This document shows, one piece after another, positions 5,593 to 17,104 of a stretch of 64,000 bases of DNA; positions within the stretch are counted from its first letter, which is position 1, and the number at the start of each line of letters is the position of its first letter. The position numbers were made by a program, and so were the translations under genes. The stretch is from the IMG/VR virus record IMGVR_UViG_3300046787_000129, positions 1 through 64,000 of that record, one strand, 5' to 3'. Below the pieces are notes generated by a model. That model did not search any database. It was not told the origin of the DNA and saw only the letters and a program-made list of their open reading frames with translations. This stretch comes from a virus.

Positions 5593-5621
5593 TTGACAAA
5601 TGGGTTATTCTTTGTTATAAT
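5593..5621 (+). promoter_or_regulatory. consensus sigma-A promoter facing the early genes (antisense)
   Basis: TTGACA-N17-TATAAT with extended TG. Confidence 0.7.
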
Positions 5622-5677
5622 ACGATTGGGTCGGCCATGCCCTGCCCCCTCCGAAGAGGGGACAGAGACTGTTTATC

Positions 5678-5950
5678 TTATTGCTCTGATGACTCTAGCA
5701 AATCGTCTAGCGTTTCAAAGCCTGTATCCTCATCAACCTCTAGACCCTCTAGCAAAAGGGCAAAGGTTTCTTCGATAAAGGCAGTAGCAACAGGCGTAGT
5801 AACAACAATGTCATTTGCGATAGCATAGGCAAGTGGCAAGCCAATGTCGTTGTATTCAATGAAGTCAGCAAACTCTACATCTTGACGATAGTTTAGCCAT
5901 AGGTCAGCAAGAATACTTGCCTTATCTTGAAAAGTGGTTGGTTCGCTCAT
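5678..5950 (-). CDS. acidic hypothetical protein
   Basis: 90 aa; followed by GC hairpin 5643-5667. Confidence 0.75.
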   Translation of the reverse strand: MSEPTTFQDKASILADLWLNYRQDVEFADFIEYNDIGLPLAYAIANDIVVTTPVATAFIEETFALLLEGLEVDEDTGFETLDDLLESSEQ

Positions 5951-6128
5951 TTATTCTTTCCTGTTCTGCTATGGCACTTTCGGTGACAATCAGCAATCTG
6001 TTGTAGTGGATAGGGGGTTTCATTTGTGCTAGGTAAAAACCTACATCATCTAAGTTTACATCAACTGGGCTAATGATTTCGGCAATCTTACTCGCAATCT
6101 TTTCTTCTCTAACGGTTGTTCGTTTCAT
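5922..6128 (-). CDS. hypothetical protein
   Basis: 68 aa; AAGGA RBS; TTGACT-N17-TACAAT promoter upstream. Confidence 0.7.
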   Translation of the reverse strand: MKRTTVREEKIASKIAEIISPVDVNLDDVGFYLAQMKPPIHYNRLLIVTESAIAEQERINERTNHFSR

Positions 6129-6171
6129 AGTGTTCCTTATTTAGTTGTATGCTTATTGTATCAAGTTTAGA

Positions 6172-6270
6172 GGGGGAAGTCAAGACCCAATTTCTCAACT
6201 TCCCCCAGTGGTACCACCAGAAACCCAAAACCAGTGGTACCGTTGGCAAGGAGTAATCTCAACCCACCAA
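6172..6270 (-). ncRNA. candidate three-hairpin antisense RNA with UUGGGU loops
   Basis: Three consecutive stems; G-U pairs extend the stems only on the - strand; loops AAUUGGG(U) and UUUUGGGUUU. Confidence 0.5.
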
Positions 6271-6280
6271 GTATATTAAA

Positions 6281-6670
6281 TTAAATAATTATCTCTTCAG
6301 CCATGGATACCCACCAGTTTGGTTCTGGTAGGACGTCGTCAACATTAATAGTTTTAATAAGGCTAGCGATACGTGGTGGAGCAAAAGCTAGGAAGTTCTC
6401 TGCAAAGTCCCACCAGTCTGAACCATACTCATCCTGTGGATAGTGCTCTGCAATGAGCGCTGTCTCTTCAGGGGTGCATTCGATAAGCAATGGCGTCTCA
6501 TACTTCCTTGTGCCCCTTGCGTCCTCTACGTATACATAAGGGTCAATGGTAAGGGTAGTGGCCCAAGTGGTCCCATTCTCTGCATACCAGTCTGACTCTT
6601 CAGTCCAGTCCGCTTCTTCAGTATAGATTTCACGGTAGAAGATGTTAAGATCGATAGTCTTACTAGACAT
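6281..6670 (-). CDS. acidic hypothetical protein
   Basis: ORF 6281..6712; probable start MSSKTID. Confidence 0.7.
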   Translation of the reverse strand: MSSKTIDLNIFYREIYTEEADWTEESDWYAENGTTWATTLTIDPYVYVEDARGTRKYETPLLIECTPEETALIAEHYPQDEYGSDWWDFAENFLAFAPPRIASLIKTINVDDVLPEPNWWVSMAEEIII

Positions 6671-7318: not shown

Positions 7319-7332
7319 TGGGTTATCCTTTT

Positions 7333-7842
7333 TTAGAAGTGGAAGTCTACAGGTATAAGATACCATGAATCATTGAGATTGTCAAGGGTATATTTAGGAT
7401 TAGTTGTAGCATTATGCATATCGTAGAAGTAGGCATTATAATTCCATGCCCCTTGGAACATCTCAATCATCATATTCAGTTCATACAACTCAAACGAGTA
7501 ATCTGTGTTACCGTCATACTTATCTAGATAGTTATTGATATCAATATTCTTCTCTTGGAAACGTGAGCGGTATCCAGCAAACTCAACCTTACGATTACTA
7601 ATCATTCTATCAATCATAGCCACATACTCATCAGGCTTCTTTGCATAACTAATAATATGATTAGGGCTAGACTGATAAGGGTCACCGTCTACAAATCTAC
7701 CGCCACCGATAACAAACCAGTCATACCAAGCATTGGTTGCGTATTCGTTTCCGCCTAGTTCACTGTTCAAAGTATCTTCAACAGTTCGCATAGCCATATC
7801 TTCGTCGTCTGCTTGAACTGCGATGTATTGCAAAACGTGCAT
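7333..7842 (-). CDS. phage hypothetical protein
   Basis: WYDWFVIGGGR...VDFHF. Confidence 0.75.
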   Translation of the reverse strand: MHVLQYIAVQADDEDMAMRTVEDTLNSELGGNEYATNAWYDWFVIGGGRFVDGDPYQSSPNHIISYAKKPDEYVAMIDRMISNRKVEFAGYRSRFQEKNIDINNYLDKYDGNTDYSFELYELNMMIEMFQGAWNYNAYFYDMHNATTNPKYTLDNLNDSWYLIPVDFHF

Positions 7843-7884
7843 TGGGTTTCCGTTCTTTGGGTATGTATCTATTATGACAGGTGG

Positions 7885-8220
7885 TTACTCATTTGTCAAG
7901 TCTTTTAGCAAAAAACCTGGGAAAGAATAATCTGTATCCTGATAGGTAACAATGCCACCAGGGAAATCTACAACGATAGGGTCATAGGATTCTTCGCCAC
8001 ATTCGTAACTAGATAGACCATAGCCAGTTTCACTATTCCAATCGTTGCCAATCAGCTGCGAGACAACGATACGCATAGCATAAGATGTGTCACCCCAGCG
8101 TGGTTCAGCTTTTGCGAGGGCAGATTGAAGGTCCGTAATCTTGCTATCTCCACCCCAGTGTGAATACAACCATACACTGCCTTTAGAGTCTCGTAATTCA
8201 AAGTTAGTACGTGCTCCCAT
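7885..8220 (-). CDS. phage hypothetical protein (LYSHWGG motif)
   Basis: 111 aa, AAGGAG RBS. Confidence 0.75.
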   Translation of the reverse strand: MGARTNFELRDSKGSVWLYSHWGGDSKITDLQSALAKAEPRWGDTSYAMRIVVSQLIGNDWNSETGYGLSSYECGEESYDPIVVDFPGGIVTYQDTDYSFPGFLLKDLTNE

Positions 8221-8387
8221 GGGGAACTCCTTATTGGGTTAGGGTTTATTTGATTACTACTACGTTACCACGGATTCGGGGAAAAGTCAAGCCTATCTTA
8301 ATAAGTATTTTATAGTTAATAGTATTAGTTAGAAAGAGGCCGACCACAGATCCCCTCCGCTGTCAAGCGGAGAGGTCTGCGTGTCTG

Positions 8388-9395: not shown

Positions 9396-9550
9396 AAGAG
9401 ACTTCTTTCTTTAGTGGGTTATCTTGATGTATAACTAGATTACCAAAGAAACTAGTGTTTGTCAAGACTATTTAGCAAAATATTTTGGCGTGTCTTAAAG
9501 CTTATCGTAACTTGATCAGGAATAAAGGGGGCAGGGGCCGACCCCAAAAG

Positions 9551-11296: not shown

Positions 11297-11429
11297 GGGT
11301 TTCTCCTTTGTTTGATTACTATAACTATACAACTACCCTCAGACATTTAAGGGATTTCGTACGGCGTGTCTTAAAGCTTTTGAATAAAGGGTGGCAGGGG
11401 TCGGCCCTTTTTGATCAGCTGTCAAGGTA

Positions 11430-11585
11430 AAAGAAAACCCCCTAGCAGTATGGAGGGATTTCCTCTATTATGTCTAGGGAGTTCTATTTCGCCAAGAGTC
11501 CTTGCGGTTATTCCTGACTTGCTATTTTTATCGTGTTTGCCATCACGCCTGTAAGCCGTTGCCTAGGACACTTACAGGAGGCTTG
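11430..11585 (-). ncRNA. candidate structured RNA ending in a terminator
   Basis: CCUGUAAG/CUUACAGG, CGUG/CACG, CC-GCAA-GG and CCCUAG/CUAGGG stems then U-run; no ORF. Confidence 0.35.
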
Positions 11586-12076: not shown

Positions 12077-12213
12077 TGGGTGACTACTTTCTTTATTGGG
12101 TTTATTTGTTATTACAAGTTTAGCATAGGGGTTATACATTTGTCAAGGGGCAAACAGTTTCTAGATTTGCTTACCCCTCGACAAAGGGATTAGTTTACGC
12201 TTTCCATAGGCGG

Positions 12214-13303: not shown

Positions 13304-13358
13304 TGGGTGACTCTTTCTTTTGGGTTATTGGATTATGAAAATAATACTAACAGACTTA

Positions 13359-15002: not shown

Positions 15003-15263
15003 CTACTCCTGAAAGAAGCTTGGGGGATTGTCATCCCAGTCTGGCTCAGAGTAGTTAGGGTCGTTCTCGAAACGGAAGAATTCTTCGGTGGTGCAGTTGT
15101 GGTCATCCATGGTTATCTCCATTCGTTAGGGTCAAAGTCGAAAGGGCTATAGGCATCTGAGCCACAGCCACAGCAAGGGCGGTCTTCGCAATCACACATT
15201 TGGGTCTCCTTCTGATAGAAAGTCTTGGATGTCTTCATCTGTAAAATCACCGTATCTAGCCAT
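15003..15263 (-). CDS. three coupled microproteins (15192-15263, 15113-15199 with CEDRPCCGC, 15003-15110)
   Basis: Read by hand; the first is leaderless, the others follow GGAG. Confidence 0.5.
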
Positions 15264-15421
15264 GTGATAAATCTAACACACATGTCAGACATTTACAAAT
15301 CCAACACGCCGCTTTCGGGGATTCTGTGGATCGATCTTAACTAACGTAACTTGACAAAAGTGGGTCCAGGGGCCGACTTTTTTAGCTGATTTGTCAAATC
15401 GACACGCCGATAAAAAGTGGA

Positions 15422-15880: not shown

Positions 15881-16456
15881 CTTGAACTCCTTTCTTTTTT
15901 ATTTCTTTTTCTTTATCTATATATATTTAAACATACATTATGCGATTTGTCAAGTCTATTTGGTAACAAACTTATAACGGTTTTTTTAGAGATATCATAC
16001 AAGACTTATCCACAGAGTTATCCACAGGGCCGACCCCTTTCGGGATCGTTTGTCAAGCTGACACGCCGTGTCCTAGAGAAATAAGAAGGCCATCACGAAA
16101 CTTGAAAATGTCTTCTTCGCTTAGGTGCTTTAGAAAAAAGGTGTTGTGGTATTTGCGAATAAATAGAAGGGCACAATCAAGGCAATTGCTACTGCCAAGG
16201 CAACCGCACATTAGTTTCCCCTAGTGCGGTATAGGCTAACAAAAGCGGTAATGGCAAAAGCAACCATTACAATCTGAAGGATAGAGGTTGCTAGGCGTGT
16301 GATGTCCATTAGGGTTACTCGCTTTCTGGGGTAGTGAATAGGTCTGAAGGGTTAGATAGCATTAGGTCAATCTTGAAGATTAGTTCTTCTAGTTCTTGGG
16401 TAGTCATTTTTGTTACCTTTCTTGATTACTTAGATTCTATTACAGGGGTCAGACAA

Positions 16457-16845: not shown

Positions 16846-17104
16846 TTGTATTTCTTCTTTCTTTCTTTATACCTAAAGCCTATACCCTACCTAGGACATT
16901 GTCAATACGACACGCCGATAAATGGGAAAGTTTTTTAACAATCTTAGATAGTTATCCACAGAGTTATCCACAGGGCCGACCCCATGGGTCGCCATTTGTC
17001 AAGCCTATTTAGATAACGATTAGATAACAAACAATGTGATCGAGATCGCCCATATTGTCGGGGGTATCTGATAGGCTATACCCATATAGAGAAAGGTACC
17101 ACAC

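Follow-up and report, generated by a model that had tools for sequence, protein, structure and literature searches.

What is the role of the three hairpins, H1, H2 and H3, that follow a small early gene of an uncultivated phage, and do their loops reach the start regions of other early genes? The hairpins occupy positions 6172-6270 on the - strand of the DNA analyzed here, a 64-kb window that forms the first part of a 109.6-kb IMG/VR phage record (IMGVR_UViG_3300046787_000129, here G000), and they lie in the 3' untranslated region of the gene at 6670-6281. An initial annotation, made from the letters alone, had read them as a candidate antisense RNA of ~100 nt whose UUGGGU loops match the start regions of many early genes. 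Comparison with related loci indicates that they are a real, conserved and previously undescribed structured RNA module of an uncultivated phage clade and, judged from its sequence, the module is certainly a composite terminator-promoter junction. We tentatively favor an explanation in which this conserved terminator-promoter module also pairs, through its loop caps, with C-run start regions, and taken as a whole we place that reading somewhat short of an even chance. Little is known of regulatory RNAs in lytic phages, above all in those with Gram-positive hosts that lack Hfq and in uncultivated freshwater and marine phages, and here one short sequence would unite a terminator, a promoter and a conserved RNA structure.

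The early genes run along the - strand from ~18.7 kb down to ~4.9 kb behind many promoters of the TTGACA/TATAAT type, the + strand carries the structural genes, after the early region, and the early region is apparently lytic. The three hairpins were found exactly where they had been annotated, at the 3' end of an early operon. The - strand folds with a minimum free energy of -48.7 kcal/mol (z = -4.4), a value that 0 of 200 shuffled sequences matched. The + strand folds worse (only -35.9 kcal/mol) because several of the pairs are G-U, so that the assignment of the fold to the - strand from its G-U pairs holds; the alternation of G-U pairs in the relatives agrees with it.

Relatives gathered with the upstream protein comprised 5 viral, 62 metagenomic and 1 metagenome-assembled genome (MAG) locus, and the module recurs in ~54 metagenomic phage contigs. 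RNAalifold on plain MAFFT alignments returned no structure or only H2, as the 5' arm of H3 was misaligned, and it was replaced by a hand-given structure with covariance-model realignment. The first covariance model (R1), built from nine sequences with that structure, gave exactly one match in each of 50 loci, always at the module position. On the R1 alignment, which is fitted to the model itself, 96.4% of cells were paired compared with 41-54% when the partners were slid, and double changes occurred at 21 of the 26 pairs (203 cells). This is the strong compensatory change that the annotation had proposed as a check, and because several pairs alternate G-U with A-U or G-C, the strand is fixed as -. 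A second model (R2) was rebuilt from the R1 hits, and the window sequence was left out of the building of both; R2 nevertheless matched the window at 6161-6241(-) with 34 bits (E = 5e-6 in 257 kb; 3e-7 in 15 kb with the filters off). With R2, G000, the complete relative G001 (94.8 kb) and the MAG (2.8 Mb) yielded no second copy. Conservation in more than 50 related phages, accompanied by compensatory changes, places the three hairpins beyond chance. The RNA had not been recognized as a member of any family, and we likewise obtained no Rfam match, either at gathering score over the whole window or at E ≤ 1 over the window element and four relatives; a DNA search of the phage collection with the hairpin region and tblastn of cultured phages with both flanking proteins also gave no match. 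With strong covariation, more than 50 members, no match in Rfam and no homologue in a cultured phage, the new RNA motif is well supported.

The architecture is the same in nearly all loci. Directly after the stop codon come an optional H1, one or two G-capped hairpins, a long G+C-rich hairpin, a U-run and TGgTAtAAT, the module overall consisting of one to three G-run-capped hairpins and then a terminator hairpin. About half of the relatives keep the sequence of the H1 core, UUGAGAYUACUCC. H2 is homologous to the GGGG- or GGGGG-capped hairpin of all relatives, which always stands 3-6 nt ahead of the terminator and is always linked to the same small gene; L015 and L020 carry tandem identical caps. 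In an alignment of 41 sequences the sole invariant columns are T..GGG in the cap, CTTG in the -35 element and TG-TA-A-T in the -10 element. GGG is thus invariant in 41 of 41 sequences, and the cap is GGGG or GGGGG in all 40 of the others; the window loop UUUUGGGUUU, with three G, would not pass a definition of the cap as at least four G. The window is a divergent member of the module family, and the UUGGGU loop to which the annotation had drawn attention is the form that an otherwise invariant GGGG cap takes in the window alone, so that the G-run is conserved and the exact word is not. On these comparative grounds the G-run caps are functional, whatever their partner. A leader-peptide open reading frame (ORF) starting after the G-run was considered and, by inspection, rejected, as it is not conserved.

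The same features bear on a reading at the level of DNA, in which a single DNA-binding regulator recognizes TGGGT and ACCCA as its site in the two orientations and the T-rich H3 loop serves the embedded promoter as an UP element. The - strand of the early region (13.8 kb) contains eight copies of TGGGT, without overall enrichment (8 versus 9.6), and three of these copies stand in the 80-nt hairpin cluster at a spacing of 38-39 bp; the H3 loop, furthermore, lies at approximately -41 to -54 of the promoter. We nevertheless regard a DNA element as hardly credible: the stems covary and their G-U pairs fit one strand only, the G-run stands anywhere from ~40 to ~62 nt away from the -35 element across the relatives, and the near-invariant CC of the terminator loop is not a feature of UP elements.

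In the relatives, the 3' arm of the terminator hairpin and the U-tract double as the -35 element and spacer of the promoter of a 63-73-aa gene, and in the window CTTG likewise lies in the 3' arm of H3, with the -10 element 17 nt on and the small gene after it. Because the terminator hairpin also holds the -35 element and spacer of the next promoter, the module would close the upstream early unit and restart transcription for the next gene. Most relatives have the U-tract UUUUUUGG after H3; the window has a degenerate UCUAAACUUGAU, which was not listed by the terminator scan, and whether H3 terminates transcription in the window phage itself is uncertain because the U-run is degenerate there. 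The terminator loops fall into two classes. Most relatives carry UUAUUUCCUUUC, a loop of 12-15 nt with a near-invariant CC; it resembles the 16S 3' tail and is the complement of the Shine-Dalgarno tract, GAAAGGAAA, found in these phages. The other class, found in the window (AAUUGGG), L012, L018, L051, L065 and G002, has a short AUUG(G/C). The proposal of a separate ~100-nt RNA is weakened by this analysis: no promoter of its own is visible and H3 is first of all the terminator hairpin that holds the -35 element of the next promoter.

Fusion of terminator and promoter is a general habit of the window early region. Three more - strand hairpins have an early -35 element (CTTGACAAA) in, or straddling the end of, the 3' arm (12139-12185, 7897-7919 and 15951-15974), all unrelated in sequence to the module. 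Composite terminator/promoter cassettes are also known from T4-type phages, where they are called PeSLs (PMC2839356, PMC4122927), and the module resembles these in that it joins a stem-loop terminator to an early promoter of the sigma-70 type and lies between small early genes, with several such junctions in the window. It could therefore be a plain junction of this kind, in which H3 terminates and insulates the upstream unit, the embedded promoter restarts transcription, H1 and H2 merely shield the 3' end from exonucleases and the match between G-runs and C-runs is coincidental. The placement of the -35 element in the 3' arm and of the U-run in the spacer in nearly all relatives, the other hairpins of the window with TTGACA in or abutting the 3' arm, the precedent in T4-type phages (PMC4122927) and the weakness of the energy and swap tests for pairing given below all speak for this view. 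It would, however, leave unexplained why more than 50 divergent sequences share an invariant G-run cap, why the H1 core is conserved in sequence and why the conserved 12-15-nt terminator loop has a near-invariant CC, where plain protective hairpins should drift. PeSLs, moreover, are multi-copy, with many near-identical copies at the cassette boundaries of a genome, and are implicated in recombination, whereas the module is syntenic and present once per genome according to R2, and it differs from them further in its extra G-capped hairpins, its long conserved terminator loop and its -35 element inside the stem. A junction and nothing besides is, in our judgment, unlikely.

The candidate partner of the caps is a short C-run at the starts of early genes. 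ACCCA occurs 34 times on the early - strand compared with 13.7 ± 3.7 in shuffled sequences, and the form ACCCA(A0-2)ATG has seven copies where 0.33 are expected, all 7 of 7 in the early region. The box (ACCCA, or ACCCC in relatives) lies between the Shine-Dalgarno sequence and the AUG and is complementary to the module loops. A CCC(C) box stands 1-3 nt before the AUG, and in G000 CCC is found within 9 nt of the AUG in 7 of 30 early genes versus 2 of 130 other genes. The box is restricted to early genes in the 85-kb G003 phage too, is kept at orthologous genes down to ~35% protein identity, for example at MHVLQ and MSKF, two genes a short way upstream of the module, and is absent from the distant relatives L004 and L006, both of which lack the module. 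Among the individual leaders to which the loops had been matched, the complementarity at 7842 (9-11 bp) and 11296 (9 bp) was correct, but the site at 15199 has no credible gene start: it falls within a 59-aa ORF (15113-15292), and translation from its ATG would yield fewer than 30 aa. The leaders at 13304-13330 and 12077-12105 are near-identical over ~30 nt (AACCCA-A(W)AAAGAAAG-(W)AGTCACCCAATG), which suggests that duplicated or converted promoter-leader cassettes lie behind them.

According to the explanation that we favor, the early mRNAs of the upstream unit would carry the module as a structured 3' tail, and its exposed caps (UUGGGUUUC in H2 and AUUGGGU in H3) would bind the C-run box carried by several early genes, the majority of which belong to the adjacent upstream operon. 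Such pairing could occlude ribosome binding, in cis or in trans, once the 3' end of the operon has been made, and short G-C runs might suffice without a chaperone, as for the actinobacterial 6C small RNA (sRNA). In most relatives the same start regions could in addition be bound at their Shine-Dalgarno tract, GAAAGGAAA, by the terminator loop UUAUUUCCUUUC. As no promoter for a discrete RNA is seen, a regulator would have to be the 3' tail of the mRNA itself or a piece processed from it. Pairing of the G-run caps with the C-run start regions of early genes, whether in cis or in trans, is to us a serious possibility, albeit one to which we give less than half of our confidence; were it true, it would provide a simple, RNA-only mechanism for shutting off early genes.

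The distribution of the C-run box agrees with this pairing, and so do several matches to the loops. Loop complements of at least 6 nt were present in 5.6% of start regions versus 3.0% of background windows (p = 9e-4), and matches of 8-9 nt to the loops were found in G003, L054 and L055. In a swap test that ranked eleven loop types (the twelfth had no C-run start regions), 4 of the 11 preferred their own loop, and for the window and UUAGGGGUUUC types the own loop came first or was beaten only by near-identical loops of that group. Other observations weigh against pairing. The own loop ranked only 7th-10th in five of the eleven types. Duplex energies of the H2 loop favored early over late start regions only modestly (p = 0.01), 20 of 300 shuffled loops equaled this, and those of the H3 loop showed no significant difference between early and late start regions. 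In the largest clade, with GGGGG caps, the start regions have CCC only and practically no loop complements of at least 6 nt, and in G001 the complement to the H3 loop is only weakly early-specific. The cap itself in most cases measures 4 nt and has an A-U or G-U closing pair, which is small for a kissing interaction; H3 of the window has no U-tract, a discrete ~100-nt RNA has no visible promoter of its own, and the ACCCA boxes could have been inherited along with the duplicated promoter-leader cassettes. Of the multi-target antisense RNA originally envisaged there thus remain a conserved, strand-specific structure and G-run loops complementary to an early C-run box, whereas the duplex energies barely beat those of shuffled loops and the own loop is preferred in a minority of types. 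Two more specific schemes were rejected. The length of the G-run does not track that of the C-run (G3/C3, G4/C4, G5/C5), as phages with GGGGG caps mostly have CCC and G4 phages range from C3 to C5, and a universal, obligatory kissing pair between H2 and H3 (GGGG with CCUU) does not hold, as GGGG is kept where the H3 loop lacks CCUU.

A close parallel to the proposed pairing is the 6C sRNA. For an sRNA to act in Actinobacteria, a run of G-C pairs linking a loop to a single strand is enough, and no chaperone is needed (PMC6486639); the module shares with 6C the homopolymeric G- or C-run hairpin loops, the short complementary runs near ribosome-binding sites and the independence of Hfq and ProQ. 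It is not homologous: 6C is defined by two hairpins with C-rich loops and an Rfam match, whereas the loops of the module are G-rich and hit nothing in Rfam. The polarity is mirrored, with G-run loops facing C-run targets, and the module is phage-encoded and part of an mRNA 3' end. By extension of the favored pairing, the 3' tail of the early operon might be a chaperone-independent multi-target RNA, its caps directed to the C-run spacers and, in most relatives, its anti-Shine-Dalgarno loop to the Shine-Dalgarno tract, which would turn off early translation after full transcription of the operon, mirror the logic of 6C and perhaps titrate 6C; we consider this fuller scheme possible but on balance somewhat unlikely.

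The P1/P7 C4 and P4 CI RNAs, to which the element had been compared from the start, serve as a working analogy, being phage RNAs from the same operon with loops complementary to phage ribosome-binding regions. There is no match to them in sequence or structure (Rfam C4 was not hit), C4 precedes its target and is excised by RNase P, and both RNAs control immunity in temperate elements, in contrast to a 3' tail that ends in a terminator in an apparently lytic early region. The module therefore stands outside the P1 C4/P4 CI family, and the resemblance is one of function and mechanism by analogy only.

The host enters the argument at this point. The portal protein of the phage is 47% identical to the portals of ~130-kb Streptomyces phages, and an 85-kb phage-like contig with the module (L081; G003 contig C1) was binned in a MAG labeled uncultured Bifidobacterium, which may be either a hint to an actinobacterial host or a binning artifact. 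From these two observations the host of the module-bearing phages is probably actinobacterial. With such a host the module might act as a decoy, its AAGGGG caps mimicking a Shine-Dalgarno sequence that binds the 16S 3' end, or sponging the C-rich loops of 6C, and its UUCCUUUC loop mimicking the 16S 3' tail. By inspection, a duplex of AAGGGG with CCUCCUU would need one wobble pair and UUCCUUUC looks like the 16S 3' end, and the C-rich loops of 6C do act on G-rich sites (PMC6486639). The window caps, however, are only GGG flanked by U, and the argument is purely inferential; we regard a decoy as very improbable.

The genes on either side of the module bear on a further possibility. The downstream gene is conserved in the relatives, where it encodes 63-73 aa, and the AlphaFold model of its 68-aa product in the window consists of three helices (predicted local distance difference test score, pLDDT, 79) with no match in the Protein Data Bank by Foldseek. 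As a search anchor in viral contigs this protein recovered no loci, and neither the flanking nor the target proteins fall into a family in Pfam or PHROGs. In G002 (L011 8102-8311) and L019, an extra 69-aa gene with its own promoter and a Lys/Arg-rich N-terminus stands between the homologue of the 143-aa gene and the module, and in G002 the module is still attached to the promoter of the small downstream gene despite this insertion.

Such an arrangement could suit a cis-acting RNA that binds a protein or the polymerase ahead of the terminator, either a nut/boxB-like or put-like site for read-through of H3 or an operator or decoy that is bound by an RNA-binding protein of the phage, for instance a flanking gene product. 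An invariant small loop on a covarying stem is a classic signature of a protein-binding hairpin, and the tandem identical caps, the constant 3-6-nt distance to the terminator, the linkage to one small gene and the insertion of the Lys/Arg-rich gene right before the module all speak for it. Like lambda nutR-tR1 and HK022 put, the module consists of conserved hairpins that directly precede a terminator in an early transcript; unlike them, it has no boxA/boxB consensus and no identified N-like protein, and the gene past the terminator has its own promoter, so that antitermination is not needed for its expression. No recognizable RNA-binding or antiterminator domain was found in the flanking proteins, and nothing ties a protein-binding site to the early-specific C-run box. 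We judge this alternative quite unlikely. The features of the locus and the start regions discussed above are collected in Table 1.

Table 1. Features of the module, its flanking genes and the candidate start regions in the window.
Feature	Position	Strand	Description
H1	6243-6270	-	weak G-U-rich lower stem, UU bulge, apical GAG-AUUA-CUC
H2	6210-6241	-	11-bp stem, 10-nt loop UUUUGGGUUU
H3	6172-6206	-	14-bp G+C-rich hairpin, loop AAUUGGG
Sigma-70-type promoter	6155-6183	-	TTGACT-17-TACAAT, TG-extended; -35 inside H3 3' arm; serves 68-aa gene
Upstream early gene	6281-6670	-	130-143 aa; motifs DLNIFYRE, LIECTPEET, EYGSDWW; 3' untranslated region is the module
Conserved 68-aa gene	5922-6128	-	three predicted helices, no family; always immediately downstream of module
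Leader of 169-aa gene	7843-7866	-	ACCCA near 5' end, GGAAACCCAAUG at start; best predicted H2-loop partner, -19.9 kcal/mol
Start region of 129-aa gene	7319-7335	-	GGAUAACCCAAUG; 7-nt complement to H3 loop AUUGGGU
Start region of 69-aa gene	11297-11312	-	GGAGAAACCCAUG; 9-nt complement to H2 loop
Leader of 147-aa gene	12077-12105	-	two ACCCA boxes (AAACCCAAUAAAGAAAG...GUCACCCAAUG)
Leader of 173-aa gene	13304-13330	-	two ACCCA boxes; near-duplicate of 12077-12105 leader

Several other features of the region were seen along the way. On the + strand, a perfect, TG-extended TTGACA-17-TATAAT promoter (12 of 12 positions) at 5593-5621 points toward the 3' end of the - strand early genes, with a G+C-rich hairpin at 5640-5667 just downstream. 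Its transcript would be antisense to 5678-6128 and, if unterminated, also to the hairpin module. The window contains no tRNA or tmRNA genes; two relatives have tRNA genes in their early regions (L026 900-971 and L053 917-988), ~3.4 kb upstream of the module. Identical contexts recur between the first ~1000 positions of the window and 108.6-109.6 kb of G000 (133/108760, 373/109000 with one base different, and 846/109473), which indicate a direct terminal repeat of ~1 kb, though the record is classed as linear without end repeats.

Two further words recur in the early region. The first, TAAATGTCTGA(G/C)(G/C)(G/C)T, is present in approximately nine or more copies on the - strand between 10500 and 15800 (sites include 10516, 11332, 13992, 14521, 14687, 15292 and 15763) and also in L009 and L010 (G001), where it takes the variant form TAAATGTCAG(T/A)GG. 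It often overlaps stop and start codons ~12 nt before TANNNT and looks like a second class of promoter, with an element at approximately -26 to -30 and no -35. The second, the G+C-rich GGTCGGCC/GGCCGACC, recurs in small hairpins at early cassette boundaries (9528-9545, 11411-11440, 15360-15372, 16956-16987 and 8340-8352), and related words occur in G001 and G002.
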